A stretch of DNA of 30,466 bases from Thermoplasmata archaeon. GTDB taxonomy: Archaea; Thermoplasmatota; Thermoplasmata; RBG-16-68-12. The notes beneath the pieces were generated by a model, which had not been told where the DNA came from, did no database searches, and saw nothing but the letters and a program-made list of their open reading frames with translations. Positions 4 to 23,249 of the stretch are shown in pieces (within the stretch, counting starts at the first letter, position 1; every line of letters begins with the position of its first letter). Location: contig JAJYKG010000001.1 in assembly GCA_021788795.1 (NCBI GenBank), forward strand, positions 1 to 30,466, given 5' to 3'. The position numbers were made by a program, and so were the translations under genes.

Positions 4-591
4 ATGGTTCCGACCTCTGTGGACCCTCGGACCCAGAGCGGCCTCGATGACCTGCGCGAGCACGATCGCGAGGTCCTCGAATTCCTCTCGCGAGATCCTT
101 CCGCCCAGGTGGCGTTCCAGGGCATCCGCCGGCGGCTCGGGATCCACCCCGAGCAGCTCTCCCGTGCCCTGCACCGGCTCGCGGAGGATGACCTCGTCCA
201 GAAGACCGAGGTCGGGTACCGGGTCACCGCCAAGGCGCTCACGATCCTGAGCCCGAAGGACTGGGCCCCGGAACGCACGGGCGCGACCATCCTCCAGACG
301 TACCTGCCCGCGGACGTGGACGTGCGCGCGTTCGTGACTTCCCTCCGCGGATCCTGGGTGGGACCGCTGCGCTGGTATGGGGTGGTCGAGTCCTCGGAGG
401 AGTTGCGGCTGTCCTGGGCCCTCGAGGACGAATCGGTCCAGCTGGACGTGCGGATCCACGGCGGCCAGCTCATGATCACCGCGAACGTGGAGGACCCGAG
501 GCGCCTCGATGAGGCCACGCGCCTGGGGCACCTGCTCTTCCGCCAGATCTCGGGAGAGGCCTCGCGCGGATACGGCGGCCTCGTGGCATGA
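4..591 (+). CDS. Winged helix-turn-helix domain protein with an uncharacterised C-terminal alpha/beta domain
   Basis: The N-terminal segment DREVLEFL...FQGIRRRLGIHPEQLSRALHRLAEDDLVQKTEVGYRVT fits a wHTH (helix-turn-helix plus wing). The start lies at the window edge, so the true start could be further upstream. Confidence 0.7.
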   Translation: MVPTSVDPRTQSGLDDLREHDREVLEFLSRDPSAQVAFQGIRRRLGIHPEQLSRALHRLAEDDLVQKTEVGYRVTAKALTILSPKDWAPERTGATILQTYLPADVDVRAFVTSLRGSWVGPLRWYGVVESSEELRLSWALEDESVQLDVRIHGGQLMITANVEDPRRLDEATRLGHLLFRQISGEASRGYGGLVA

Positions 592-668
592 CCGGTCTTT
601 TGTGACTGGGCCGACCGTCTTCGAATCAACATACCCCACCGCCGCCATGGTCCCTCCGAGGTCAACAC

Positions 669-1247
669 ATGACCACCACGGTTGGCATACGCAGCAAGGA
701 CGGCGTGGTCCTGGCGGCCGACAAGCGCGCGTCGAAGGGGTTCTTTGTCGGATCCAAGGTGGTCCAGAAGCTCTTCGCCCTCGACGACGCGACGGCCGTC
801 GCCATCGCCGGACAGATGTCCGATGCCGAGTACCTCGTGAACCTCGCGAAGGCGGAACGAAGGCTGCTCACCCTGAGGCGCGGCTACCCGCTCAGCGTCC
901 GCGAGAGCGCGAAGCTCATCTCGAACATCGTGTACAACGGAATGAAGAGCTACAGCCCGTTCTACGTCGAACTGGTCGTCGCGGGCGTGGACAAGGAAGG
1001 CGCCCACGTCTACACGAGCGACATGAGCGGCGCCGTGACTTCGGAGGACTTCATGTCCTCGGGGAGCGGCTCGCCGATCGCGTACGGCGTGCTCGAACAG
1101 GGCTACCGCAAGGACATCGCCCTCGAGGACGCGGGGAAGCTCGCCGAGGCCGCGGTCCGCGCGGCGATGGAGCGGGACCCGGGAAGCGGGAACGGCGTGG
1201 ATGTCCTCGTCGTCCCGAACGGACGATGGCACGGGGAGGCGAACTGA
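669..1247 (+). CDS. psmB: 20S proteasome beta-type subunit (Ntn hydrolase) without a propeptide
   Basis: Begins M-TTTVG. D17 and K33 (numbered from Thr1) and the S-G-S-G motif (SSGSGSPIAYGVLE) are present, as is RDPGSGNGVDV. A GAGGT Shine-Dalgarno lies at 658-662. Confidence 0.92.
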   Translation: MTTTVGIRSKDGVVLAADKRASKGFFVGSKVVQKLFALDDATAVAIAGQMSDAEYLVNLAKAERRLLTLRRGYPLSVRESAKLISNIVYNGMKSYSPFYVELVVAGVDKEGAHVYTSDMSGAVTSEDFMSSGSGSPIAYGVLEQGYRKDIALEDAGKLAEAAVRAAMERDPGSGNGVDVLVVPNGRWHGEAN

Positions 1248-1248
1248 G

Positions 1249-1917
1249 ATGGCGGCAGAGATGGGGCGCATGCCCTTCTTCTACTCGCCCGAGGGCCGGC
1301 TGGTCCAGGTGGACTACGCCCTCCAGGCGGTGTCCCGCGGCTCCACGACGGTCGGGCTGAAGACGAAGGACTTCGCCCTTCTCTCGAGCCAGGTGAAGCC
1401 CACGCGACCCCTGCTCGAGCCCGCGGAGAAGGTCTATGTCCTCGACGACCACGTCGGCGCGACCGGAAGCGGCTACATCGGCGACGTGACGACGCTCATC
1501 GACGAGCTCCGCGTGGAGGCGCAGAAGCACCGCCTCGTGTACGACACGCCCATCGACGTGGGCACGCTGTCGCGGCACCTCTCCGAGTACCTGCACCAGC
1601 TGACGATGTATGCGGTGCGCCCCCTCGGCGCGTCGATCATCTTCGCTGGGGCGGACGAGCTCGGCATCCAGCTCGTCCAGGTGGACCCCAGCGGCACCGC
1701 CTTCCGCGGCTCCGGGTTCGCGATCGGCCAGGGGGCCGACGAGGCCCTCGAGGCGATCCATAAGGGCTACCGGCCCGACCTGAGCCTCGAGGAGGCCCTC
1801 TCGCTGACGACGAAGTCCATCGAGGACCTCAACGGCGGCAAGAGCGTCATCGAGCACGGTGTCGTGCAGGCGGGCACGAGGCGCTTCGAGCACCTCCCGT
1901 CCGCGAAGGCCGAGTGA
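1249..1917 (+). CDS. psmA: 20S proteasome alpha-type subunit, divergent N-terminus, 222 aa
   Basis: YSPEGRLVQVDYALQAV matches the alpha H0 signature. GSTTVGLK, EKVYVLDDHVGATGSG, RPLGASIIFAG and VDPSG...AIGQG are also present. The ATG at 1249 is 1 nt after the beta stop; the 1201 start in the track overlaps the beta gene. Confidence 0.9.
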   Translation: MAAEMGRMPFFYSPEGRLVQVDYALQAVSRGSTTVGLKTKDFALLSSQVKPTRPLLEPAEKVYVLDDHVGATGSGYIGDVTTLIDELRVEAQKHRLVYDTPIDVGTLSRHLSEYLHQLTMYAVRPLGASIIFAGADELGIQLVQVDPSGTAFRGSGFAIGQGADEALEAIHKGYRPDLSLEEALSLTTKSIEDLNGGKSVIEHGVVQAGTRRFEHLPSAKAE

Positions 1918-2046
1918 ACCACTCGGCCCCCTTCCTTTCCGTCATACCTCCACTCAGAGGTACGCGCGAATCCGCGGCGGCGGAGCGGCCCCGCGCGCGT
2001 GAACAAGCGTTAAGTGCCCGGCGGTCCATCGCGAGCCCGCATCGCC

Positions 2047-2964
2047 ATGCGCATCGTGTCCTTCCTGCCTGCGGCCACGGAGATTTGCTACGCCTTGGGT
2101 CTGGGCGGGGAGCTCGTGGGCGTCTCGCCCGAGTGCGACTACCCGTCCGCGGTGAAGGAGGTGCCGGTCGTGAGCCGCGCCCTCGTGGACTCCGACGGCA
2201 AGACGAGCGCGGAGACCAGCCAGGGCGTCGGCGAGGCGCTCGCGGAGGGCGGCGCCCTCTACGAAGTCGACCGCGAGAAGCTCGAAGAGGCGGCGCCGGA
2301 CGTGATCCTGACGCAGGGCCTCTGCGAGGTCTGCGCGCCGTCCGTGGCGGACGTGCGCGCGATCGCGACCCGCCTGACGAAGAAGCCGCGCGTCGTCTCG
2401 CTGGACCCCCACACCCTCAAGGACGTGCTCGAGAACATCGAGGCCGTCGGCAAGGCGTGCGGGTCTCCCGTGGCGGCGCGGAGCGTCGTGGAGGATCTGC
2501 GGGAGCGGATCGAACGGGTGGCGTTCCTGACGGCCCGCGTCCACGAGCGGCCGAAGACCGCGTGCATCGAGTGGCTGGAGCCGCTGTTCATGGCGGGCCA
2601 CTGGGTCCCCGAGCTCGTGGAGTTCGCGGGCGGCATCGACGCGGTAGCGAAGCGGGGGGAGCGGTCGCGGCGGATCGAGCCGAAGGACCTCGTCCTCGCC
2701 GCCCCCGAGGTCGCCGTGCTCATGCCGTGCGGGTTCCACCTGGAGCGGACTCGGGCCGAGGCGCCGGCCCTGACGACGAAGCCGTGGTGGAAGGACCTCC
2801 CCGCGGCCCGCGCGAACCGTGTGTGGCTCGCGGACGGCTCCGCATACTTCAGTCGGCCCGGGCCGCGGATCGTGGACGGCCTCGAGATCCTCGCCCACAT
2901 CCTGCACCCCGAGATCTTCTCCCGCGCGCCCGCCTCCAAGGACGCGGTCCCCTGGATGGGCTGA
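2047..2964 (+). CDS. Cobalamin/Fe-siderophore-type substrate-binding protein (BtuF-like) with no signal peptide
   Basis: Shows MRIVSFLPAATEICYALGLG..LVGVSPECDYP, PDVILTQGLCEVCA and YFSRPGPRIVDGLEILAHILHPE. Start moved to the ATG at 2047. Confidence 0.85.
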   Translation: MRIVSFLPAATEICYALGLGGELVGVSPECDYPSAVKEVPVVSRALVDSDGKTSAETSQGVGEALAEGGALYEVDREKLEEAAPDVILTQGLCEVCAPSVADVRAIATRLTKKPRVVSLDPHTLKDVLENIEAVGKACGSPVAARSVVEDLRERIERVAFLTARVHERPKTACIEWLEPLFMAGHWVPELVEFAGGIDAVAKRGERSRRIEPKDLVLAAPEVAVLMPCGFHLERTRAEAPALTTKPWWKDLPAARANRVWLADGSAYFSRPGPRIVDGLEILAHILHPEIFSRAPASKDAVPWMG

Positions 2965-2965
2965 C

Positions 2966-3508
2966 ATGCCCGAGCTGTACACGCGGACGGGGGATGCCGG
3001 GACCACCGGGCTCCTGGGGCCGGAGCGCATCTCCAAGGACGACCCGCGGGTCGAGGCCATGGGCGCCGTCGACGAGCTCAACGCAGTCCTGGGCGTGACG
3101 CTCGCGGCGCAGAAGGACCGCGCCATCCGGGAGACCCTTTTGAGGGTCCAGGACGACCTGTTCACCGTCGGCGCAGAGCTCGCCATGGCCCGGAAGGCGG
3201 AGACCAAGGTTCCGGTGGTCACTGCGGCATACGTCTCCCGACTCGAGTCCGCCATGGAAGGACTCGACGTCGGACCGGTGAAGGAGTTCCTCCTGCCTCG
3301 CGGGTCCGAGGCCCTCGCCCGGCTGCACTGGGCCCGGACCGTCGCGCGTCGCGCGGAGCGCCGTGTCGTCGCCCTGGCCCACAAGGAACCGCTGAACCCG
3401 GAGCTCCTGCGGTACATGAACCGCCTCTCCTCCCTCCTGTACCAGATGGCCCTGTGGGTGCAGACGAAGGAGAAGCGGAAGCGGGAGCACCCCACCTACC
3501 GCAGCTGA
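2966..3508 (+). CDS. pduO: PduO-type ATP:cob(I)alamin adenosyltransferase
   Basis: Shows LYTRTGDAGTTGL, RVEAMGAVDELNA, QDDLFTVGAELA, ARTVARRAERR and YMNRLSSLL. The ATG is 1 nt after the previous stop. Confidence 0.92.
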   Translation: MPELYTRTGDAGTTGLLGPERISKDDPRVEAMGAVDELNAVLGVTLAAQKDRAIRETLLRVQDDLFTVGAELAMARKAETKVPVVTAAYVSRLESAMEGLDVGPVKEFLLPRGSEALARLHWARTVARRAERRVVALAHKEPLNPELLRYMNRLSSLLYQMALWVQTKEKRKREHPTYRS

Positions 3509-11740: not shown

Positions 11741-12424
11741 TCACGCGGCGAGGTCGTCCCCCCAGGTGAAGACGATCCGGTTGACGTTGAGCAGGTAGTC
11801 GGCCGTGTTCGGCGAGGAGGCGGCGGGGATGCCCAGGATGTCGAGACTCACGAGCACCCAGGCGTTCCAGACGATGCTCGACGGGCTTCCGCCCGTGCTC
11901 ACGACGTAGTCCGTGATGTTCTGGACCACGCGGAAGTTCGTGGCGTCGGAGGACGCGTTCAGCCGGAGGGGGAAAACCAGGGTCGCGTGGCCGTCCGCCG
12001 GCACGCGGGACGGCGCGACCTGCACGGACTCGATGTAGACGAGGGTGAACAGCTGCGTGCGGCTGCCGTTCGTCACGGCCACCTCCTGCCGCGCAGGGGC
12101 TACGGGCACGTGGGCCTCCGCCGGGACGTCCTCGATCCAGACCTTGTACGCGACCGTGTCGAAGGCGAGATCCCGCGGGCTCGGGTTGCCCACTGTGAAG
12201 AGGAAGGTGAAGTTCACGGTCCCGTTGTCCAGGAGGGCGCCCGCGGGCGTCGTCCCCTCGTAGTGGACGACCTGGGCGACGTCCAGCGTGGAGAGGCGCG
12301 CGTCCGCGACGGAGAGGTACGTCCCCGCGGAGGCGAGGGCGAGGAGTCCGACGACGACGCCGGCGCCGAGGAGGACGTACCACGGCAGCTGTTCCGCACG
12401 GGAGGGCCGGCGGCCTTCGCTCAT
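11741..12424 (-). CDS. Membrane-anchored extracellular beta-rich protein (LEA2/Ig-like fold suspected)
   Basis: One N-terminal TM (WYVLLGAGVVVGLLALASAGTYL) followed by a beta-strand pattern (FTFLFTVGNPSPRDL..VAYKVWI) and five N-X-S/T sequons. Its start overlaps the oppF stop (ATGA). Confidence 0.75.
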   Translation of the reverse strand: MSEGRRPSRAEQLPWYVLLGAGVVVGLLALASAGTYLSVADARLSTLDVAQVVHYEGTTPAGALLDNGTVNFTFLFTVGNPSPRDLAFDTVAYKVWIEDVPAEAHVPVAPARQEVAVTNGSRTQLFTLVYIESVQVAPSRVPADGHATLVFPLRLNASSDATNFRVVQNITDYVVSTGGSPSSIVWNAWVLVSLDILGIPAASSPNTADYLLNVNRIVFTWGDDLAA

Positions 12425-13545
12425 AGGTCAGTCGAGGGGAGCTCCGGGGTCGGCGGCGCGACAGGCTCCGGCGCCATCGGAGGTGCCTCCAATCGTCCCT
12501 CGAAGATGTCCTCCGCGAAGTGGCACTCCACCGAGTGTCCGGGCACCACCTCGACCACCGGCGGCCGGACGAGCTTGCAGATCTCCTGGGCGTAGACGCA
12601 GCGCGTCCGGAAGCGGCAGCCGCTCGGCAGGTCAATGGGGCTCGGCAGCTCCCCCTGGATCGGGACGGCGGTGTACACGTGCTCCGGGTCCGGGATGGGC
12701 ACCGCGGTCAGGAGCGCCCGCGTGTACGGGTGCGTGGGATGCGCGATCACCTCCTCGGTGGGCGCGCTCTCGACGATCCGCCCGAGGTACATCACGTTGA
12801 TCCGGTCAGACATGTACCGCGCCACGGCGATGTCGTGGGTGATGAACACGTAGGGCATCCGGTGCCGCGCGCGGAGATCGAGCATGAGGTTCATCACGCC
12901 CGCGCGGATCGAGACGTCGAGCATGGAGACGGGTTCGTCCGCGATGATGACCTTGGGGTTGAGGACGATGGCGCGGGCGATCGCCACGCGCTGCCGCTGC
13001 CCACCGGACATCTCGTGGGGGAACCGGTCGAGGAAGTCCTGCCCGGGCCGGAGCCCCGCCTCCTCGAGGGCACGGATGACGAGCTCCTCGCGCTCCTCCC
13101 GCGACTCGCCGATGCCGTGGATGAGGAGCGGCTCGGAGATCGCGCGCAGGACGCTGTAGCGTGGGTTGAGGGACTCGTACGGGTCCTGGAAGATCATCTG
13201 GAGGTCGCGGCGGAAGCGGAAGAGATCCCGCGGATCCAGGACGGCGATGTCGACGCCCTGGAAGAGGATCCGCCCCTCCGTGGGAGTCTCGAGCCGCGCG
13301 ATCAGCCGCCCCGTGGTGGTCTTCCCGCACCCCGACTCCCCGACGAGCCCGAGGATCTCGCCCTGCCGGAGGTCGAAGCCGATCCCGTCGACCGCGCGGA
13401 CGGAGACGGGCTCTCCGCGGAGGGACTTCAGGAAGCCCTGCTTGAGCTGGTAGTACTTCTTGAGGTGCTGGACGCTGACGACGACCCCGTCCTCCGCGAC
13501 GGGAGGGGCCTCGACGACCTCCGGGACCGCGGAACCGGCGCTCAT
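12421..13545 (-). CDS. oppF: Oligopeptide/dipeptide ABC transporter ATPase (OppF/DppF)
   Basis: GESGCGKTT, QMIFQDP, MSGGQRQR, IIADEP and a C-terminal CRFRTRC...C...CH cluster. The ATG at 13545 overlaps the oppD stop. Confidence 0.93.
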   Translation of the reverse strand: MSAGSAVPEVVEAPPVAEDGVVVSVQHLKKYYQLKQGFLKSLRGEPVSVRAVDGIGFDLRQGEILGLVGESGCGKTTTGRLIARLETPTEGRILFQGVDIAVLDPRDLFRFRRDLQMIFQDPYESLNPRYSVLRAISEPLLIHGIGESREEREELVIRALEEAGLRPGQDFLDRFPHEMSGGQRQRVAIARAIVLNPKVIIADEPVSMLDVSIRAGVMNLMLDLRARHRMPYVFITHDIAVARYMSDRINVMYLGRIVESAPTEEVIAHPTHPYTRALLTAVPIPDPEHVYTAVPIQGELPSPIDLPSGCRFRTRCVYAQEICKLVRPPVVEVVPGHSVECHFAEDIFEGRLEAPPMAPEPVAPPTPELPSTDL

Positions 13546-14882
13546 GTGTGGCCCAGCCCCCCCTGCTCGTAGAAGTCCTTCGAGAAGTGGCACAGGGCGC
13601 GGTGGCCTCCCTCCGGGGTGTAGAAGTAAGCGGGCTCCTGCACGAGGCAGACGTCCTGCACGTACTTGCAGCGCGGGTTGAAGCGGCAGCCCTTGGGCGG
13701 GGTCACGAGGCTCGGCGGGCTCCCGGGGATGGCTTCCAGGCGGCGCTTCTCGCCCTTGACGCTCGGGAAGGCGCCCAGGAGGCCCTGGGTGTAGGGATGG
13801 AGCGTCCGGCTGAAGATGTTCTTCGAGGCGCTCTCCTCGACCAGCTGGCCGGCATACATGACGCAGATGCGGTCCGCGACCTTCGCCACCGTGGACACGT
13901 CATGGGAGATGATCAGGAGGGTCATCTTCAGCTGCTTCTGGATGCGGAGGACCTCGTCCATGATCCGGGAGGCGGTGATGACGTCCAGGGCCGTGGTGGG
14001 CTCGTCCATGATCACGAGCTTCGGGTTCAGGGCCAGCGCCATGGCGATCATCGCACGCTGCTTCATGCCCCCGCTGTACTCGTGCGGGTAGTTGTCGATC
14101 CGGTCCGGCGGGATGCCCACGAGCCGGTACAGCTCCTCGACGCGGGTCCGCGCCTGCCCGTCGTCCACGTCCTCGTGGGTCTGGATGGCCTCGATGATCT
14201 GGTCGCCGACGGTGTAGACCGGGTTGAGGGCGTTCATCGCGCCTTGGAAGACCATGGCGATCTGCTTCCAACGGATCGCGTTGAGCTTCGGGTGGTATTC
14301 CCGCAGCCGGCCGTCGGGCAGGCGGGTGATGTCGACGAGGTCGCCCTCCTGGGTGGCCGCGGAGAGACGGCGCCGCGCTTCGATCAGGGGCCGGCGGACG
14401 CTCGGGTCGTTCGCCTGCCAACGCTCCGTGAGGGTGTCCACCTGCTTCTGGAGCGTCTTGATCTCCGCGTCCAGATGCGTCCGGTACGTCTCCGAGAGCG
14501 GGTTCTCCAGGCGCCCGATCTCCTCCTCGAGCTCCTGGCGGTCCTGGGAGGAGCCGTCCTCCTTCGGCGTCTGCGCCAGCTTCGCCCTCAGGTCCTCCAG
14601 ATCCCGCTGGAAGCGGGACTCCGCGAGACCCCAGTACTCCGGACGATAGGGGTTCGAGCCCCCCTCGCCGTGGAACAGGACTTGGCCCCCGAGGACGTAC
14701 GCGTTGGACGGGAGGAGCTGCGTGATCGCGTAGGCCAGGGTCGTCTTGCCGCATCCGGACTCCCCGACGAGCCCGACCGTCTCCCCCTCGTCGATGTCCA
14801 GGTCGACGCCGTCCACGGCCTTGACCCACCCGGCCTGGACCTTGAAGTAGACCCGGAGCTTGCGCACGGAGACGAGCGACAT
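13542..14882 (-). CDS. oppD: Oligopeptide/dipeptide ABC transporter ATPase (OppD/DppD) with a ~110-aa helical insertion
   Basis: GESGCGKTT, IAMVFQGAMNALNP, YSGGMKQR, VIMDEPTTALD and a C-terminal CRFNPRC...C...CH cluster. Confidence 0.93.
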   Translation of the reverse strand: MSLVSVRKLRVYFKVQAGWVKAVDGVDLDIDEGETVGLVGESGCGKTTLAYAITQLLPSNAYVLGGQVLFHGEGGSNPYRPEYWGLAESRFQRDLEDLRAKLAQTPKEDGSSQDRQELEEEIGRLENPLSETYRTHLDAEIKTLQKQVDTLTERWQANDPSVRRPLIEARRRLSAATQEGDLVDITRLPDGRLREYHPKLNAIRWKQIAMVFQGAMNALNPVYTVGDQIIEAIQTHEDVDDGQARTRVEELYRLVGIPPDRIDNYPHEYSGGMKQRAMIAMALALNPKLVIMDEPTTALDVITASRIMDEVLRIQKQLKMTLLIISHDVSTVAKVADRICVMYAGQLVEESASKNIFSRTLHPYTQGLLGAFPSVKGEKRRLEAIPGSPPSLVTPPKGCRFNPRCKYVQDVCLVQEPAYFYTPEGGHRALCHFSKDFYEQGGLGHT

Positions 14883-14884
14883 GG

Positions 14885-17227
14885 TCAGCGCCTCCGCAGG
14901 CGGGGGTTGATGATCTCATCGAAGCCGCGGCCGATGAGGTAGAAGCCCAGGGAGAGGAACGTGATCCCGAGCCCGGGCGGCAGCAGCCACCACCAGGCGT
15001 GCAGCGCGCCGCTGAACGTCAGCAGGTTGGAGAGCATCCCGCCCCACGAGGTGACGGTGGGGTCCCCGAACCCGAGGAAGCTCAGGGCCGCCTCCGTGAT
15101 GATCGCGCCGCCGACATTCAGGCTCATGTAGAGGAAGCTGAACGGGAGCACGTTGGGCGCGATGTGGAGGAACACGAGCCGCAGGTCCGAGGCGCCGGAG
15201 ACGCGCGCCGCGTCCACGAACGGGCGCTCCTTGAGGCTGAGTACTTGGGACCGGATGACCCGGGCGATCCCCGGCCACCCGAGGATCGCGATGACCAGGA
15301 TGATGATCCAGATGCTCGGGCTCACGATCGAGATGAGGACGAGCACGATGGGCAGGAACGGGAGGACGAGGAAGACGTCCGTCGTCCGCATGAGGAGGGT
15401 GTCCAGGGTCTTGCCGTAATACCCGGAGATCACGCCGACGAGCGTCCCGATCCCGACGCTGAAGAACGCCGCCAGCAGGCCGACGAGGAACGCGATCTGC
15501 GTGCCGTAGATCCACTCGGTCAGAATGTCGCCGCCGAAGAAGTCCGTGCCCCACAGGTACGTGTTCCCGGACGGGTAGGAGCCGGGCGGGAGCGGGGTGC
15601 GCACGGATCCTTGGAGCTGGAACGCGACCGTCTGCGCGGTCACGGGGTCCGTCCAGACGCCCCAGAGCTCCTGCGTCGAAAGGCTGCCGTAGAGCGTGCC
15701 GTGGAAGGAGCCGCCGTACTCAATGCTCTGCACGCCGGTCGGCGGGAAGACCGGGAACTCGTCGGGCGTCACCGCCGACGAACCGGAGTAGACCGTCATG
15801 AGGGAGAAGATCCTGTGGTCGCTTCCCAGGAAGAAGACCCGGTTCTGCTCGAAGGAGTAGAAGTAGCTCAGGACGCGGCCGGGGATGTGGACCTGGAACT
15901 GGGGGACGAGCTGGTAGCTGATCCCCGACGCGGTGGTCGCATTCACCTGGGTCGCGCCGACGAAGTACGTGTCGTTGGACGTGGCGTTGTACCAGGCGCT
16001 GAAGTAGTCGCTCCCGGTCCGGCTGAAGGTGTGGCCGAGGGGCTGCCATCCTGTCCCGGGGAGGGTGTACATCGTCCCCAGGGTCAGCGTGTTGAGGTCA
16101 AGGTAGGCCATCCCGCTGGCGGTGGCGGAGCGCAGGGGCAGGTACAGGCGCAGGGGGTACTGGGCCTGGGTGTACCCGATGTTCCCGACCACGGTCGCCG
16201 GAGCGCCGTCGAGGGTGAGCGGGACGAACGCCCGGACGGTCCCGGTGACGTCCGCGACCTCGAGCGTCCCGTTCGCCAGGGGCAGGAAGATGCCTTGGCC
16301 CGGGCCCGAGCGGTAGGCGTCCGCCGACGTGACGCCGGACGGGTTGTAGTAGACGAACGGAGGGGCGGAGAGCGTCACGTTAAGGGAGAACACCCGGGAC
16401 CCCGTGTCGATCGAGGAGGCCCACGCGTTGCCGTACTGGACCTCGTAGACGACGGTCTCGGTGCCGTTGGAGGCATAGAAGTACTGGTACGGGCCGACCG
16501 GCGTGCAGATGATGCCGAAGCACGAAGACCGCTGGGCGGGGGCGATGAGCAGGTCCCCGGCGGCCAGCGGATCCTCCCCGGTCCACGTCGGCGTGAAGTT
16601 CATCCGATCCCGGAAGAAGGCGTTCGCGCTGAACGGGTCCGCCGCGACGAAATCCTGCCCCGAGAAGAACGCGATGCCCCCGTTGAGCAGCGACGGCCCG
16701 AGGCTGCCGTTGAGGAGGGTCGAGGGGACGACATAGTAGAGGGACACCATGGGAAGGCCGGGGGGCGGGGCCAGTTTGAAATACTGGGTGATGTCGATCG
16801 TGCGGGTGTAGTTGGACGACAGGAACGGGCTCTCGTTGAACCCCACGGCGTACTCGAGCGGGTTCATGTAGATAATGCCGGCGGTGCGGTTGTAGTTCAG
16901 CTCCCACATCGCGCCCGCGGCGTTGCTGAGCGGCGTCGTGGGCCCGAGCACGGGCTCCGCGTAGGTGAGGTTCGCGGGCAGATCCAGCGTGTACGCCTTG
17001 TTCTGGAACCGGTCCACGTCCGGCGCGAGGTACAAGCGCGGATAGGGAGCAATGACCGGGGCCAGGATGGCGATGAGGGCGAACAAGACCACGATGACGA
17101 AGCCGATCATGCCGAGGCGGCTCTGCCGGAGCGTGGACCACGACTTCCTCGCGAGCTGCCCCACGCGCTGAAGCACGAGCTGGCCGGTGGAGGGCGCCGG
17201 GCGGCCCGCGGAATCAGATGCGGACAC
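14885..17227 (-). CDS. oppC: ABC permease OppC/DppC with a ~490-aa extracellular insertion
   Basis: N-terminal TM (LGMIGFVIVVLFALIAILAP), then after the insert WGTDFFGGDIL, GVISGYYG, the EAA loop (ERPFVDAARVSGAS) and EAALSFLGFG. A GTG start at 17227 overlapping the oppB end was chosen. Confidence 0.88.
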   Translation of the reverse strand: MSASDSAGRPAPSTGQLVLQRVGQLARKSWSTLRQSRLGMIGFVIVVLFALIAILAPVIAPYPRLYLAPDVDRFQNKAYTLDLPANLTYAEPVLGPTTPLSNAAGAMWELNYNRTAGIIYMNPLEYAVGFNESPFLSSNYTRTIDITQYFKLAPPPGLPMVSLYYVVPSTLLNGSLGPSLLNGGIAFFSGQDFVAADPFSANAFFRDRMNFTPTWTGEDPLAAGDLLIAPAQRSSCFGIICTPVGPYQYFYASNGTETVVYEVQYGNAWASSIDTGSRVFSLNVTLSAPPFVYYNPSGVTSADAYRSGPGQGIFLPLANGTLEVADVTGTVRAFVPLTLDGAPATVVGNIGYTQAQYPLRLYLPLRSATASGMAYLDLNTLTLGTMYTLPGTGWQPLGHTFSRTGSDYFSAWYNATSNDTYFVGATQVNATTASGISYQLVPQFQVHIPGRVLSYFYSFEQNRVFFLGSDHRIFSLMTVYSGSSAVTPDEFPVFPPTGVQSIEYGGSFHGTLYGSLSTQELWGVWTDPVTAQTVAFQLQGSVRTPLPPGSYPSGNTYLWGTDFFGGDILTEWIYGTQIAFLVGLLAAFFSVGIGTLVGVISGYYGKTLDTLLMRTTDVFLVLPFLPIVLVLISIVSPSIWIIILVIAILGWPGIARVIRSQVLSLKERPFVDAARVSGASDLRLVFLHIAPNVLPFSFLYMSLNVGGAIITEAALSFLGFGDPTVTSWGGMLSNLLTFSGALHAWWWLLPPGLGITFLSLGFYLIGRGFDEIINPRLRRR

Positions 17228-18215
17228 GTGGATCGAGCACTCCGTACAGGATGTCCGCAACGATGTTGCCCGCGATGACCAAGAGCGAGATCATGAACAG
17301 GATGGCCCCCGCGAGGAACCGATCCTGGGTCTCGATCGAGGTCAGAAGATAGTAGCCCATGCCGAAGTAGGAGAAGATTTGTTCCAGGATGATGGCCCCC
17401 CCGACGACGAAGCCCAGGGCGATGACGATGCTCGTGACGACCGGAAGGTAGGCGTTCCGGGCCGCGTGCCGCTTCCGGACGATGCGCTCCGAGAGGCCCT
17501 TAGCCTTGGCCGTCAGGATGAAGTCCTCGCCCATGACCTCGAGCATGGACGTTTGCATGAGGAGAATCGTCCCGGCGGAACTGATCAGGACGAGCGTGAG
17601 CATCGGGAGCACCGCGTGGGACGCGACATCCACGAACTGGAACCACAGGGACGAGGGGTCGGTCCCGGCCCAGGGATAATGCTTCAGGACGAAGGACGCG
17701 TCCTGGAAGTGCCCCAGGTCGAAGATCGGGATGGTGAAGGCGAAGATGTAGAGCAGGATGAGGCCGATCCAGAACGACGGCATGTTGAAGAAGAACAGGC
17801 TGGTCATGATGACGCCGCCCTCGACGGCGCTCCCGCGCTTCCAGGCGATGTACCGGCCGACGAGAATCCCCAACATGTACTCGATGACCACCGCCCCGCC
17901 GAACAACAGGAGCGTACGGGGTAGCGCCTGCTGGATGATCGAGATGACCGGGACGCCGGTGATCGACTCACCGAACTGGAACGTGAACATGTTCACGATG
18001 TACTTGTACATCTGGATCCAGAACGGGTCGTTGAGCCCGTACTCACTCGCGACGTAGGCGATGGTCTGCTTGGGAATCGTGGGGTTGCCGCGCAGCCCGT
18101 CCAAGGGGCTGCCGGGCTGGGCCTTCCACAGGAGGAAGATGATGATCGTGACGATGAAGAGAGTAAGGAGGCCCTGAATGAGCCGACGCACGATGTAACG
18201 GCCTAGCGAGGCCAC
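17214..18215 (-). CDS. oppB: ABC permease OppB/DppB
   Basis: RYIVRRLIQ, FQFGES, LPRTLLL, the EAA loop (EDFILTAKAKGLSER), RNAYLP and LEQIFSYFGMG. SD GAGGGGGTGA before the GTG. Confidence 0.93.
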   Translation of the reverse strand: MASLGRYIVRRLIQGLLTLFIVTIIIFLLWKAQPGSPLDGLRGNPTIPKQTIAYVASEYGLNDPFWIQMYKYIVNMFTFQFGESITGVPVISIIQQALPRTLLLFGGAVVIEYMLGILVGRYIAWKRGSAVEGGVIMTSLFFFNMPSFWIGLILLYIFAFTIPIFDLGHFQDASFVLKHYPWAGTDPSSLWFQFVDVASHAVLPMLTLVLISSAGTILLMQTSMLEVMGEDFILTAKAKGLSERIVRKRHAARNAYLPVVTSIVIALGFVVGGAIILEQIFSYFGMGYYLLTSIETQDRFLAGAILFMISLLVIAGNIVADILYGVLDPRVRI

Positions 18216-18254
18216 GGTTCACCCCCTCGGATTCGCTCCAGGAATCTCCGGAGC

Positions 18255-18263
18255 CTATAATAT
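18255..18263 (-). promoter_or_regulatory. TATA box of an internal promoter for oppBCDF
   Basis: The minus strand reads AGCAAAC-ATATTATAG, about 40 nt upstream of the oppB start. Confidence 0.55.
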
Positions 18264-18305
18264 GTTTGCTCAACCTCAAGCCCATTGGAACAAAAGTTGG
18301 AAAGT

Positions 18306-18330
18306 GGACCGGGGTTCTTCGCCCCGGTCC
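18306..18330 (-). terminator. Stem-loop with a downstream U-rich tract after oppA
   Basis: GGACCGGGG-N7-CCCCGGTCC is a perfect 9-bp stem 8 nt after the oppA stop. On the minus strand it is followed by ACTTTCCAACTTTTGTT. Confidence 0.7.
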
Positions 18331-18338
18331 GTTCGCTC

Positions 18339-21300
18339 CTAGAGCTTCTCGTCCGGCCCAAGTTCCTCCTCGGCGGGGGACTTGGTCTCCGCAGGCTGCT
18401 CCGTCTCCTCGGGCATCGCCATCGTCGGCTTCTTCCGCCGGCGCGACAGCATGAGCCCGACGAGCGCGCCCACGACCAGGCCCACGATCAGCAGTCCGCC
18501 GGCGAGGGCGTAGGCCACGAGAGAGCCGATCGTGCTCTCGGCGGAGCCCACCGTGACCGACGTCGACTGGCTCCCGATCGCCACGGTGTACGTGCCGGCC
18601 GACGCGAAGGCGTACGACAGGGTCACGTTCGCCGTCCCGAGGGAACCGACCGACACGGACTGCGCGGCGACGGGTTGGCCGTTCACCATGAGGACGACCG
18701 TGGAGGTGCCGGCGACAGGCAGAACGTTCGTCACCGTGAGTGCGAACGTCGAGACCTGCCCAGCCGCGGCCACGTTCGTCGCCATGCCGCCGTAGGTCAG
18801 CACGGGCGCCGCGGCCATCAGACCGAACCAGGCACGGAGCACCTGACCGTCCGCGGTGGTGACGACGACCATCTGCTCGACCGCACCGACCCCTGCGGTG
18901 TACGTGAACACCGCGTTGCCGTTGCTGTCGGTGACGGCCTGGACGGCTCCGCTCCAGACGGACGCCCCGTCGACGGCGGCGCTAGCGCCGTTCGCCACAT
19001 GCACCGTGACCGTGGTCGTCCCTCCGAGGGGAACGATCGTCGAGGACGGCGTGGCGGTCGCGAAGTCCGTCGCCGTCGGGATGGCGAGATACCCGACGTT
19101 GAAGTTGAACGGGAACTTCGCCAGCAGGACCTCGAAGGTCGGGCCGAACCAGAAGTCACCGTAGCCGTCGCCGAACAGCTGGTCGCGGGCTCCGAAGGCG
19201 AACGCCGGGTCCGCGGGCAGGAAGCCGAAGGACAGCGCCTGCGAGAGGCTGAACAGCGGGGCCTTGTAGGAGTCGGTCGCGACGCCGTTCGCGTCCGTGG
19301 TGATCGTCCCGCCGAACGCACCTAGCACGTTCGTGGGCGATCCGCCCTGGACCAGGAACACCTGGACGTTGGACGCGGGGACATCCGTGGATCCACTCAG
19401 CTTGTAGAACGTGCCCGTGATCGTCTGGGTCCGCCCGGTCGTCGAGTTGTAGACGGGGTTCGAGAGCGTCCACGAACCGAGGGCAAACACCGGCGCGCGC
19501 TGGGACACGACCCCTGAGTCGATCCGGAAGACCGAGTTGCCCACCGAGGCCACTGCCGCGCAGGCGTTCACGGTCACGTTCATGTCCGGCTGCCCGACGT
19601 ACAGCTGCACCTGGAACCGCTGGTCCGCAATCTCCGGGTTCGCCCAGAAGGTCGAGGTGTAGGTGCCCGCGGAGCTGGTCACGCTCGTCGCGTTGATGTA
19701 GTACAGCCCGTTGAAGTTGCGCGGCCACGCGACGGTCCCCGCGGTCTTGCTGCCGCCGGAGTTGCACGAGTCGATCGTTGCGTTGATCGCGTAGTTGTTG
19801 CCCATGTTGGCGAGCTCATAGTCGTTGACCATGTTCTCGACACCGTAGGCGGGCCCCTGCTTGATGTTCGGTCCCGGAACGGAGGGCCCGATCGGGCCCG
19901 TCGAGTTCTGGAAGGTGCCGCCCAGAGAGCCGAACCCGAAGAACGTGCTCAGCTCCAGGCCGGATCCCGCGTACTCGATGTTCTGGTAGCCGCCCTTCGT
20001 CCCCGACACGTTGACGAGCGTGTACACGAACGGGAACTGGGCCGCCAGCCCGTAGTCGCCGAGCGGGATGTTGAACATCACCGGGACGCCCGATGCGACA
20101 GCGCCCGTCTGATCCCACAGGTGCGCCGTCACGGTGTCCGTGGTCTTCGACGCCGAGAAGGCGAGCGCCCGCGAGCCGAAGGTGAGTTCCGCCGCGTAGC
20201 TAGCGTTCAGTACGTTGCTGCCCACGACAAACGCGAGCTCGTCCGAGGTCGCCGTGGCGTTGAACGGCGTGTCGAAGCGGACGAACACGTTCGTGTCGTT
20301 GGTCTTCACCGCGTTCACCTGGGGCGCGTTGCCCGTCATCGTGAACGTGGCCAGACCGCTGGCATCGGTCTTCGCGTATCCTGGCGCGATGGTCAGGTTC
20401 TTCGGGTCGGAGTTCTCGGCCGTGATGTTCACGCCGGGCACCCCCGCCCCGCTGAAGCCCGCCGCCTTGACGACAACCGTGGTCGAGGGGTGCGTGGTGT
20501 TCAGGACGAGGCCCGTCCCGATGCTCTGCACGGAGACGATGTCCACGTTCGGGGCGTTCGGGTTCTGCACCGCGATGGTCAGCGACGCGGACTGCGTCGT
20601 CCCGACGATCGTGTCCGGCACGCTCACGTTCGCGAGGATCGTGTCGAGCAGGTTCGCGTTCGGGAACAGCGCCGCGGTCGCTGGCGCGGTGTAGGTGAAG
20701 GTCGCGTGCCCGTTGGCGTCCGTGACGAAACTGGACCCGGAGGCGGTCCCAAGCATGAGGTGCGTGTCCAAGGTGACCGTCTGGCCGGCGATCGGGTTAC
20801 CTAGCCCGTCCACCAGCGAAGCCGTCACCGTGGCCGTGCCTCCCGGGAGGATGACCGGCGTCGGCGTCGAGAGCGACAACGTGGCCATCGGCGCCGGCGG
20901 CCCGACCGAGACCTCGAGCTCCTTCGTGACCGTGGAGGTCGCGCTGCCTTTGGCCGCCGTGACGGTCAGGTAGATGTTGCCCTGGATCACCGGGACCGTC
21001 CAGCTCACCTGCGCCCCGCCCGTGACGTCCGTCGTGCCGCTGGCACTGTTGAGCGCCGTGCCCGAGGGCAGGGACGCGTTGAGCCAGACCGTCGCGCCGT
21101 CCACCGGGACCCCGTTCTGGGAGACGTAGGCGGGAACCTGCATCACGTGATTCGCGAGCACCCGCTCCGGCACCGTGGTCGCCACGTTCAGCGTGCCCGA
21201 AGGCGGCGGCACGGCCGGGACTCCCGCGGGTCGCAGGCTGACGAGGGAGTAGAAGTTGAAGACTCCGCCGCCGCCCGAGAGCGCGTTCAGCACCGGGTTG

Positions 21301-23249
21301 TCGATGAAGCCCGACCACCGCGTGTTCAGGTAGGCGTTGATGTTCTTGCGGTAGTACAGGACGTTCCACGGAATCGCGTTCGTCACGATCCCTTCGACCT
21401 GCTGGATCTCCTGGATCCGCTTGGTCTGGTCGACCGTGTAGGGGATGACATCGTTCGCGAGGTAGTCCACCGTCGCGTTGCTGAATCCCGCGGAGTTCGA
21501 GCCCGCCGGGTTGATGTTCGGGTCCTGGTTCGTGCAGAAGAACGCGCACAGGTACGTCTCCGGGTAGGGGCCTAGGCTCCATCCGAGGATGTAGATGTCG
21601 AAGCTCACCGGGGGCGAGAACGCCTTGGCCACGATCGTGTCGAAGCTCGTGGGGGCGGAGTTGATGTCCAGGCCCGCCTGCTTCAGGTTGTTCGAGATCA
21701 TGATGCCCGCGTCGGCCCGCACCGGGTCGTAGTCCTTGGGCGGGGTCAGGATCGTCGCGGAGATCGGGGTCCCGTCCGGCGTGTCGTAGAACCCGGTGTT
21801 CGGGTCCTTGTGGAACCCGCAGCCGTTCAGCTTGGCATCGATGCCGGCCAGGTTGAACGACGGGGCGTTCGCCGAGAAGTTCACGTAGGCCGGGTTGATG
21901 ATGGAGATCGGCACCGAGCCAGGCACGCCGAAGCCGCCCAGCAAGGTGTTGACGATGTAGTTCTTGTCGATCGCCATCGAGATGGCCTGCCGCAGGCAGA
22001 GGCTGTACGGCTCCTGGCCCCAGGGCGCCTTCCGCATGTTGAAGGACAGGTAGAAGAACCCGCTGTCGGTGACCGTGTCGACGGAGATCGCCGGGTTCGA
22101 CTGGACCTGGGTGTAGAAGCCGGGCGTCAGGGACCAGATCAGGGTGTCAATCACGCCCTGTTGCAGGGCCAGGCTGACGACGTCCAGGCTGCTGTAGATC
22201 ACGAACTTGATCGACTGCAGGTAGGCGTCTCCCGTGATCGGGTTGATCTGGGGGTAGAACGGGTAGTTCACGCCCTGCCAGACATGGCCCAGGCCGATGC
22301 CCCAGTAGGTCGGGTCCAAGGAGACGAGGGAGCCCTGGTTGTGGACCCACGACGTCAGCTCGAACGGCCCCGTGCCGATGGTGGCGGCGAGCGTGCTGTA
22401 GCTGAAGTCGATCGACCGGTCCCACGTGTCGCTTACCGCCGCGGACGTCGAACTCGAGTAGTTCGCCTGGGCCGTGGGGTCGATGTGGCCGGCCCAGATG
22501 TGCTCAGGGATAATCGACGTGCTCAGCGTCGTGGTGAAGAACAGCGCATAGGCGCCCGGCGTCGCCTGGCCCGTGATGGGGACCGGCAAGAGCTGGAACC
22601 GCACCGCGTACTGGTTACCGGAGACTCCGAACACCGCGATGTGGGACATGCAGGCGTACTGCATCCCTGCGGGTGCCTTGCAGCTCCCACCGTAGGTGGT
22701 CGAGTTCCACAGGGGCGCGATGGGCTGCGGGAACCAGAGTGCCTGGTAGATGCTCGAGGCCAGGGTGGACCAGGCGAGGGTCTGGTACGAGAAGATCACG
22801 TCGGACGCGTTCATCGGCGTGCCGTCCGTGAAGTGCACGGCCGGATTGATGAACACCGTGAAGTTCAGTCCCGATCCCCCCGTGCCGCCGTCGTAGCACA
22901 TGCCGGGGTACGGCGCCTGAACGTACGTACTCCCCATGACGCTCTGACAGGTGGCCGTCGAGATCATTGACTGGTTGGCCAAGTCGGGATACACGCTGGA
23001 ACTTGGGTCAATCGTGTATAGCGCCTCGAAGTCGTACTCTAGCTGATATGCCTTCCAAACGGTATTCGTCGCCGGATCGAACAGGTTGAGGGTAGTCATG
23101 TCATTCTGAAGACCCACAACGAGCTGGTTCGGGCCGGCCTGGGCGGATACCGGGTTGGGCTGCACCATGAACACAAAGCCCGCGAGAATCATCACCCAAA
23201 CGAGGATGGTCACGCGCAGAGCGTTCGAGCCGAGCAATTTGCTTACCAT
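18339..23249 (-). CDS. oppA: Giant family-5 (OppA/DppA) substrate-binding protein fused to Ig-like repeats, with a C-terminal TM anchor
   Basis: Signal peptide ending VSA-Q. The SBP domain (about aa 39-670) has FEALY, VHFTDGTPMNASDVIFS, IGTGPFEL, YLSFNMRKAPW, LRQAISMAIDK and AIPWNVLYY. It is followed by repeated TD(A/S)xG-x-A-x-F beta motifs, a CARDB-like module, a TM helix and an acidic tail. Confidence 0.9.
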   Translation of the reverse strand: MVSKLLGSNALRVTILVWVMILAGFVFMVQPNPVSAQAGPNQLVVGLQNDMTTLNLFDPATNTVWKAYQLEYDFEALYTIDPSSSVYPDLANQSMISTATCQSVMGSTYVQAPYPGMCYDGGTGGSGLNFTVFINPAVHFTDGTPMNASDVIFSYQTLAWSTLASSIYQALWFPQPIAPLWNSTTYGGSCKAPAGMQYACMSHIAVFGVSGNQYAVRFQLLPVPITGQATPGAYALFFTTTLSTSIIPEHIWAGHIDPTAQANYSSSTSAAVSDTWDRSIDFSYSTLAATIGTGPFELTSWVHNQGSLVSLDPTYWGIGLGHVWQGVNYPFYPQINPITGDAYLQSIKFVIYSSLDVVSLALQQGVIDTLIWSLTPGFYTQVQSNPAISVDTVTDSGFFYLSFNMRKAPWGQEPYSLCLRQAISMAIDKNYIVNTLLGGFGVPGSVPISIINPAYVNFSANAPSFNLAGIDAKLNGCGFHKDPNTGFYDTPDGTPISATILTPPKDYDPVRADAGIMISNNLKQAGLDINSAPTSFDTIVAKAFSPPVSFDIYILGWSLGPYPETYLCAFFCTNQDPNINPAGSNSAGFSNATVDYLANDVIPYTVDQTKRIQEIQQVEGIVTNAIPWNVLYYRKNINAYLNTRWSGFIDNPVLNALSGGGGVFNFYSLVSLRPAGVPAVPPPSGTLNVATTVPERVLANHVMQVPAYVSQNGVPVDGATVWLNASLPSGTALNSASGTTDVTGGAQVSWTVPVIQGNIYLTVTAAKGSATSTVTKELEVSVGPPAPMATLSLSTPTPVILPGGTATVTASLVDGLGNPIAGQTVTLDTHLMLGTASGSSFVTDANGHATFTYTAPATAALFPNANLLDTILANVSVPDTIVGTTQSASLTIAVQNPNAPNVDIVSVQSIGTGLVLNTTHPSTTVVVKAAGFSGAGVPGVNITAENSDPKNLTIAPGYAKTDASGLATFTMTGNAPQVNAVKTNDTNVFVRFDTPFNATATSDELAFVVGSNVLNASYAAELTFGSRALAFSASKTTDTVTAHLWDQTGAVASGVPVMFNIPLGDYGLAAQFPFVYTLVNVSGTKGGYQNIEYAGSGLELSTFFGFGSLGGTFQNSTGPIGPSVPGPNIKQGPAYGVENMVNDYELANMGNNYAINATIDSCNSGGSKTAGTVAWPRNFNGLYYINATSVTSSAGTYTSTFWANPEIADQRFQVQLYVGQPDMNVTVNACAAVASVGNSVFRIDSGVVSQRAPVFALGSWTLSNPVYNSTTGRTQTITGTFYKLSGSTDVPASNVQVFLVQGGSPTNVLGAFGGTITTDANGVATDSYKAPLFSLSQALSFGFLPADPAFAFGARDQLFGDGYGDFWFGPTFEVLLAKFPFNFNVGYLAIPTATDFATATPSSTIVPLGGTTTVTVHVANGASAAVDGASVWSGAVQAVTDSNGNAVFTYTAGVGAVEQMVVVTTADGQVLRAWFGLMAAAPVLTYGGMATNVAAAGQVSTFALTVTNVLPVAGTSTVVLMVNGQPVAAQSVSVGSLGTANVTLSYAFASAGTYTVAIGSQSTSVTVGSAESTIGSLVAYALAGGLLIVGLVVGALVGLMLSRRRKKPTMAMPEETEQPAETKSPAEEELGPDEKL

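Follow-up and report, generated by a model that had tools for sequence, protein, structure and literature searches.

Archaeal 20S proteasomes serve as reference models of how proteasomes are assembled, gated, and matured, and they have been described with unlinked genes and propeptide-bearing beta subunits. In the textbook arrangement, psmA lies with exosome genes and psmB with aCPSF1. Here, we analyzed a 30,466-nucleotide stretch of DNA (the window; contig C88, with its best DNA match in a mine-drainage metagenome) from a 2.2-Mb metagenome-assembled genome (MAG; 78% complete, 68% GC) of a Thermoplasmata archaeon. Its start carries a gene for a winged helix-turn-helix (wHTH) protein followed by a beta-alpha pair of proteasome genes, hereafter termed beta2 and alpha2. 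It is very probable that the two genes constitute a distinct additional set, inherited as a unit and equipped with its own regulator. On balance, we favor the reading that the first 1.9 kb of the window are a self-contained, horizontally portable three-gene cassette, present beside the canonical genes and encoding a separately regulated 20S core of its own.

Several organisms have more than one version of a proteasome subunit. The alpha2 protein of Haloferax volcanii and the second beta subunit of Pyrococcus and Sulfolobus are extra paralogs with a presumed use under changed conditions (PMC13022661). In these cases, the duplication concerns one ring type, and the extra subunit joins the existing particle, whereas in the module described here alpha and beta are duplicated together, in one operon that appears to move between phyla with its regulator and candidate operator. 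Two complete pairs, encoded by two prcBA operons, are present in Rhodococcus erythropolis (PMC13022661). In the immunoproteasome and thymoproteasome, a second subunit set with transcriptional control of its own yields a variant particle (PMC13022661); these eukaryotic inducible variants swap catalytic betas within a shared particle, and their likeness to the module is functional only, without any specific relatedness in sequence. Newly found here is a putative alternative 20S core, encoded by a portable cassette with a regulator, together with the dyad that we propose as its operator: full-text searches of the literature returned no description of the module, and the window pair is not among the 22 distant homologs surveyed by Fuchs et al. 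2021 (PMC8665760).

A second pair of proteasome genes in addition to psmA and psmB

All three genes lie on the plus strand. The wHTH gene (positions 4 to 591, an open reading frame [ORF] of 195 amino acids) is separated by a 77-nt spacer (592-668) from beta2 (669 to 1247, 192 amino acids), whose stop codon TGA (1245-1247) is followed after one base by the ATG (1249) of alpha2 (1249 to 1917, 222 amino acids). A Shine-Dalgarno-like GAGGT (657 to 661, plus strand), 7 nt 5' of the beta2 ATG, is kept in the intergenic alignment, and no ATG, GTG, or TTG occurs between the upstream in-frame stop and the beta2 start at 669. The Shine-Dalgarno sequence of alpha2, GGAGG, sits within the 3' end of beta2, and the beta-to-alpha junction ranges from -4 to +24 nt among all module loci. 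The 1-nt spacing and the Shine-Dalgarno sequence inside beta2 mark alpha2 as translationally coupled to beta2, as predicted from the DNA. No RNA family was found in an Rfam scan of the window. The ratio of nonsynonymous to synonymous substitution rates (dN/dS) is 0.05-0.14 for beta2, 0.07-0.20 for alpha2, and 0.14-0.24 for the wHTH gene; with values of 0.05-0.24 throughout, all three genes are, by this estimate, under purifying selection.

A whole-genome search returned five PF00227 genes. One is a canonical psmA (L001:1423-2148, minus strand) that encodes a protein of 241 amino acids starting with MQPGQMAYDR and adjoins SBDS and Rrp4, with FtsZ on the other side. Another is a canonical psmB (L002:1429-2061, minus strand) that encodes about 210 amino acids including a propeptide and adjoins aCPSF1. 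The other three are beta2, alpha2, and a fusion gene described below. Because canonical psmA and psmB are present at their usual loci, the window pair is not the only set of proteasome genes of the organism but an extra one, in line with the second pair that a first-pass annotation of the bare sequence had inferred. That annotation had also remarked that the usual neighbors are missing at the window; SBDS/Rrp4 and aCPSF1 indeed flank the canonical copies elsewhere in the genome. Re-reading of the coordinates returned the wHTH, beta, and alpha ORFs and the 77-nt and 1-nt gaps that it had listed, and its description of both subunits as shortened and atypical holds as well, with 222 versus 241 amino acids for alpha, 192 versus about 210 for beta, and NCBIfam scores under the cutoffs (given below).

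The fusion gene is a third alpha-like paralog, in which an N-terminal ribbon-helix-helix (RHH, CopG-type) domain is fused to a divergent alpha-like domain (PF10584 plus PF00227, 62-68 bits). The copy of this genome (L005:1453-2196, minus strand; G000:C46) adjoins a FEN1-like gene; a second copy was found in a distant Thermoplasmata genome, G133 (L138:1279-1980, plus strand). The two copies form a separate long-branch clade (100 support).

Sequence features of beta2 and alpha2

The closest relatives of known structure are canonical archaeal PsmA and PsmB, which share the Ntn-hydrolase fold. The best PDB matches are the 20S proteasomes of Archaeoglobus fulgidus (1J2Q/6HE5), Methanocaldococcus jannaschii (3H4P), and Thermoplasma acidophilum (1PMA), with E values of about 1e-35 to 1e-40 (the best at about 1e-39 to 1e-40; for beta2, the A. 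fulgidus and M. jannaschii betas come closest, at about 1e-40), and no solved structure of a module member was among the PDB matches. beta2 matches PF00227 with E = 1e-49 and 169 bits over profile positions 5-189 of 189, and scores 209.7 bits with the archaeal PsmB model TIGR03634, under the cutoff of 224. alpha2 scores 140 bits with PF00227 and 28.1 bits with Proteasome_A_N (PF10584; cutoff 27.7), and 165.3 bits with the archaeal PsmA model TIGR03633 (cutoff 287.35); it has an N-terminal extension ahead of the core and no free Thr1. The genes of canonical archaeal subunits are unlinked, whereas the module is a beta-then-alpha operon with its own regulator, and its subunits fall under the equivalog cutoffs and into separate clades.

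beta2 begins with M-TTTVGI and is catalytically complete: Thr1, Asp17, Lys33, Gly47, Ser129, Asp166, and Ser169 are present in 17 of 17 module betas, that of the window included, and canonical archaeal betas likewise have Thr1, Asp17, Lys33, Ser129, Asp166, and Ser169. The difference lies at the N terminus. Among the canonical betas used for comparison, all but L108, whose start was assigned by script, carry a propeptide that is 6-14 or more residues long and ends in Gly; in 16 of 17 module betas the start codon abuts Thr1, the start of L097 being ambiguous. beta2 itself has no propeptide of the kind that ends in Gly-1 and is removed autocatalytically. At position 53, module betas have Glu or Asn, and canonical betas have Gln.

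alpha2 shares with canonical archaeal alphas the N-terminal signature, Pro17, and Lys66; the latter residue, part of the docking pocket for HbYX activators, does not vary among any of the aligned alphas, module or canonical. In the window, Tyr8 is changed to Met and Asp9 to Gly, with Arg10, Pro17, and Tyr26 retained, and the alphas of the branch to which it belongs (type A) have a conserved GRMP[FY]FY in place of YDRAITVF. The alphas of the other branch (type B, Methanomethylicota-like) retain Tyr8 and, in some cases, also Asp9, and therefore the sequences place the loss of the gate motif in the type A branch and not in the whole module. Since the replacement segment is conserved, the gate looks rebuilt rather than decayed. 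Furthermore, all module alphas are without the 15-20 or so C-terminal residues of the canonical tail. Compared to the canonical archaeal 20S proteasome, the module thus has a beta without propeptide and an alpha without C-terminal tail, and in the lineage of the window also without Tyr8-Asp9.

Long propeptides are a feature of actinobacterial betas. The order of the genes, beta then alpha, is that of actinobacterial prcB-prcA, as the first-pass annotation had pointed out; this part of the comparison stands, and a special relatedness does not follow from it. The window proteins score only 66.2 bits with TIGR03690 (cutoff 191.9) and 16.2 bits with TIGR03691 (cutoff 139), far under the cutoffs, and we reject an origin from actinobacterial PrcB/PrcA on these scores. 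The flanks that were examined contained no genes for Pup or Mpa. A second comparison is with HslV (and Anbu/BPH), in which the nucleophilic Thr directly follows the initiator Met, as in beta2, and removal of this Met is sufficient for maturation. HslV-type proteases have no alpha-type partner, whereas an alpha gene is coupled to beta2 in every module locus. NCBIfam matches at E <= 0.01 comprise only archaeal and bacterial 20S alpha and beta models. With a coupled alpha gene and a beta2 clade that is placed among archaeal betas, an identity as HslV, Anbu, or BPH was rejected.

Distribution and phylogeny of the trio

The conserved unit is a trio of wHTH regulator, beta2, and alpha2, which stays together in relatives (identity to the window of 77-99% for beta2, 70-92% for alpha2, and 47-82% for the wHTH protein) and recurs around two remoter metagenome alphas that are 62% and 39% identical. 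One genome of each species was scanned with an alignment built for the wHTH protein, and the full trio was found in named MAGs of Nitrososphaerales/Nitrososphaerota and Methanomethylicota. Clustering of the neighboring genes revealed no fourth conserved gene; the trio alone is common to the lineages. In its own order, the module is present in 39 of 78 genomes besides the source, confined to two of seven families (37 of 43 genomes in f1 and 2 of 4 in f6, with 0 of 31 in the five others), and it was absent from all 400 other Thermoplasmatota genomes sampled. Hence, adjacency of the two genes is not a lineage-wide trait, in agreement with the paralog pair that the earlier reading had proposed. 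In Thermoproteota, 44 of 401 genomes searched have a beta2-type ortholog (55-68% identical). Five module-bearing genomes of the Nitrososphaerota/Methanomethylicota type each have one canonical alpha and two canonical betas plus the pair, and the module is always additional to the canonical set. It appears to be present in soil ammonia-oxidizing archaea (Nitrososphaerales), some of which are perhaps cultured.

Two genomes of the same genus as the source have two beta2-alpha2 modules each (G003:C1:2355-3582 and G003:C16:79077-80298; G075:C11 and C17), either by duplication or by a mix of strains in the bin.

In maximum-likelihood trees, from which ten long-branch alpha rows were excluded, the module subunits form clades of their own, with supports of 99/96 for beta2 and 100/99 for alpha2, and the beta2 clade is placed among archaeal betas. 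Both trees have the same inner topology, with a Methanomethylicota-like type B and a type A in which Thermoplasmata are sister to Nitrososphaerales. In approximately unbiased (AU) tests, trees that unite the Thermoplasmata module subunits with canonical subunits of Thermoplasmatota are rejected (P = 8e-5 for beta, P = 3.9e-5 for alpha); the pair therefore branches apart from ordinary Thermoplasmata PsmA/PsmB, a point on which the first-pass annotation had asked for trees. Congruent trees and a patchy spread across phyla point to a cassette that was inherited and transferred as one unit, and, given that it is more widespread in Thermoproteota, the Thermoplasmata lineage may have been on the receiving side.

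These data also bear on the idea that the pair arose by a recent, lineage-specific duplication of psmA/psmB and now drifts under relaxed selection or is en route to loss, with the wHTH gene as an accidental neighbor. Such a duplicate might show what is seen here, i.e., scores under the NCBIfam equivalog cutoffs, two shortened proteins, and absence of the pair from some genomes of the same genus, but the genomes without the pair are mostly incomplete MAGs, orthologs in the same trio are present in other phyla, dN/dS is 0.05-0.2 with invariant catalytic residues, and the AU tests reject a union with the canonical Thermoplasmatota clades. A recent duplication within the lineage was rejected on the basis of these tests, and the idea as a whole is scarcely credible.

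More weight has to be given to the alternative that beta2 and alpha2 are subunits that are swapped into the canonical particle, giving a mixed or asymmetric 20S proteasome and no separate particle. Mixing has been reported for alpha1 and alpha2 of Haloferax volcanii and for archaea with two betas, and the retention of Lys66 would be in line with it. It does not readily account for a duplication of both ring types together, with translational coupling and congruent trees, nor for a beta without propeptide and an alpha without tail that are common to the whole clade. Furthermore, the canonical sets of the hosts differ, with one beta in Thermoplasmatota and two in Thermoproteota; because the cassette works in hosts with such different sets, the main partners of alpha2 and beta2 are presumably each other. 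All in all, we regard the swapping of subunits as unlikely.

The wHTH protein and its candidate operator

The model of the wHTH protein (AlphaFold2, mean predicted local distance difference test score [pLDDT] of 83) has an N-terminal winged helix-turn-helix (residues 19-81 or so) and a C-terminal beta-alpha-beta4-alpha domain (about residues 94-188). Matches to Pfam are weak, with 26.5 bits for MarR_2 (cutoff 27) and a likewise weak match to HVO_A0261_N. Foldseek matches of the model in the PDB are MarR, OhrR, and IclR-type proteins, via the wHTH only (template modeling scores of 0.43-0.50 over 70-80 residues). For the C-terminal domain, no match was found in a protein atlas search, nor in Foldseek with the whole model. 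MarR and OhrR regulators thus have the same wHTH fold, and the target proposed here is, likewise, a dyad at the promoter of the adjacent operon; the C-terminal domain differs from the dimerization helix bundle of MarR, and the MarR_2 score is under the cutoff. The recognition helix is the most conserved segment of the protein, with an invariant H-x-E-x-LSR-x-L-x-RL, and homologs are encoded 5' of beta2-alpha2 in Thermoplasmata, Nitrososphaerales, and Methanomethylicota.

The spacer between the wHTH gene and beta2 contains a dyad-symmetric element, TGTGACTGG-N12-CGAATCAAC (positions 601 to 630, plus strand), a candidate operator of the wHTH protein that runs straight into a TATA-like stretch, CAACATAC (627-634). 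The dyad measures 26 bp, and its family consensus is TGAC[CT]-N16-[AG]GTCA. All 21 aligned module loci from three lineages share T-GTGACTnG-N12/13-CnAGTCAA-TAA in the spacer 5' of beta2; GTGAC and TCA are invariant, and the inner positions of the half-sites covary between the arms (TGG/CCA, TCG/CGA, TAG/CTA). The strict pattern occurs once in the 2.2-Mb genome (reversed control, 0; expectation from window shuffles, 0.00) and one to three times in each of four relatives, always with one match 5' of beta2. In several relatives, genes intervene between the wHTH gene and beta2, and the dyad then stays with beta2. Because it does so despite the inserted genes, beta2-alpha2 can be expected to have a promoter of its own. 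The proposal of the first-pass annotation that the pair is separately regulated gains support from the wHTH gene that is inherited along with it and from a conserved dyad, unique in the genome, before a TATA-like stretch 5' of beta2.

Three other strict matches outside the module were taken as chance: two are without an evident target downstream, since the match in G073:C35 is within ORFs and no ORF was called near that in G034:C7, and that in G003:C23 lies about 50 nt 5' of an ORF of 289 amino acids.

The wHTH protein could, in principle, be no transcription factor at all and act on the particle through its C-terminal domain, as an assembly chaperone, a substrate adaptor, or a cap. Co-occurrence with beta2-alpha2 in the same orientation across phyla would be expected for such a partner, and the absence of an identified fold match leaves room for a role of this kind. 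We consider it very unlikely, since the most conserved segment is the recognition helix, the adjacent conserved dyad is of the type that dimeric wHTH proteins bind, paralogs that have no proteasome genes around them lie beside the same type of dyad, and in the relatives with genes between the wHTH gene and beta2 it is beta2 that keeps the dyad.

With respect to the genes between the wHTH gene and beta2, L025:7650-8750 (minus strand; G003:C16), in one relative, is a low-GC gene for a protein of 366 amino acids that, by eye, looks SIR2-like and is encoded on the strand opposite to the module. In other relatives (L037, L046, and L050), about 2.1 kb are inserted at this position, and the dyad remains beside beta2.

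Proposed mechanism and a possible stress regulon

A dyad of the same 26 bp is found 36-72 nt upstream of HtrA-like (Trypsin_2 plus PDZ) genes in four lineages. In G034 (L027:5632-5657), a YaaA-type peroxide-stress gene then follows; in G013, a relative of the same genus (L146:2076-2101), the dyad has the same AGTCAACAA continuation; a third case is a Nitrososphaerota genome, G479 (L151:2062-2088); and in a Methanomassiliicoccales MAG (L087:2802-2827), HtrA is followed by a stand-alone paralog of the regulator, with a peroxiredoxin adjacent. Other stand-alone regulator paralogs adjoin genes for a flavin reductase, a DsbA-like protein, thioredoxin reductase, and PadR. These promoters hint at control of a small protease regulon by the wHTH family, and the dyad at HtrA genes, taken together with the regulator paralogs among redox genes, suggests a proteolysis or oxidative-stress regulon, this being the weakest step of our argument.

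In our model, a dimer of the wHTH protein would bind the dyad 5' of the TATA-like stretch and gate the transcription of beta2-alpha2. Translational coupling, for which the 1-nt spacing and the Shine-Dalgarno sequence inside beta2 are seen in the DNA, would then yield equal amounts of the two subunits, which may assemble into a 20S-type particle of their own, alpha2(7)-beta2(7)-beta2(7)-alpha2(7). beta2 would need no autocatalytic maturation: the Met-Thr1 start is evident from the sequence, and since the specificity of Met aminopeptidase is known and HslV provides a precedent, removal of the initiator Met should expose the Thr1 nucleophile. With the Lys66 pocket kept, an unfoldase such as Cdc48/VAT could still dock, and the rebuilt pore-gating segment suggests that gating would be different. 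The cassette might be induced within a response to protein damage or oxidative stress; this is made plausible by the dyad that precedes HtrA-like genes and by the regulator paralogs among redox genes, and we consider induction by stress possible, with the balance tipped somewhat against it.

That the cassette forms a particle of its own is, in our view, moderately probable, because translational coupling, the congruent trees of alpha2 and beta2, and cassette transfer across phyla all favor it. Transcription of the pair itself is weakly supported by contigs from soil metatranscriptomes (85-95% identity to the window), which cover beta2 and alpha2 more than the flanks and several of which bridge the junction.

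Several observations weigh against the model. Characterized archaeal paralogous subunits mostly mix into shared particles (PMC13022661), and a separate particle is not the default. The downstream half-site of the window's dyad is imperfect, with AATCA in place of the AGTCA of the family. Three other HtrA loci in relatives of the same genus are without the dyad, and the idea of a stress regulon derives from four HtrA promoters and anecdotal neighbors. The RNA contigs come from relatives and from soil libraries that possibly contain DNA, and the RNA run of the source study itself showed nothing. Finally, the trees are without named Halobacteriota, Asgard, eukaryotic, and bacterial (including actinobacterial) sequences, a gap that diverse unnamed alphas fill partly and that limits what the trees can say on the root and the direction of transfer.

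A more far-reaching version of the model, which we put forward tentatively and rate as rather unlikely in its entirety, is that of a stress-induced alternative 20S proteasome that has spread horizontally among soil and sediment archaea and that, for want of a propeptide, matures by itself. Its rebuilt GRMP[FY]FY gate would let it degrade damaged proteins with another ATPase or with none, and it would be co-induced with an HtrA-like protease by a new family of regulators that bind the dyad. If true, archaea would have a counterpart both to inducible proteasome variants and to the heat-shock protease regulons of bacteria. Few transcriptional regulators of archaeal proteolysis are known to us; the cassette bears on this kind of control, and the pair of regulator and dyad, together with the link to HtrA, would define a small archaeal regulon for protein quality control. 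It also bears on how two 20S systems may coexist in one cell without cross-assembly, and it is a natural experiment on the dispensability of propeptides and of the YDR gate.

Neighboring genes

In many genomes of the genus, a gene for a peptidase M29-like protein (aminopeptidase) lies directly 5' of the wHTH gene in the same orientation (e.g., L032:4174-5340, L025:5748-6833, and L042:2771-3907). The contig of the window begins at the wHTH gene, so that this neighbor was seen in relatives; it was not found at the module loci of other phyla. On the other side, alpha2 is followed in the window (2014-3508, plus strand) by genes for a BtuF-like periplasmic binding protein (Peripla_BP_2) and a PduO-type cobalamin adenosyltransferase, a synteny that is retained 3' of alpha2 in several relatives of the same genus and not beyond the lineage. 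Further downstream (12421-23249, minus strand) lies a cluster for an Opp-type peptide ABC transporter, whose family-5 solute-binding protein has 1636 amino acids and Ig-like (Big_1) domains and whose OppC-like permease is unusually long (791 amino acids).

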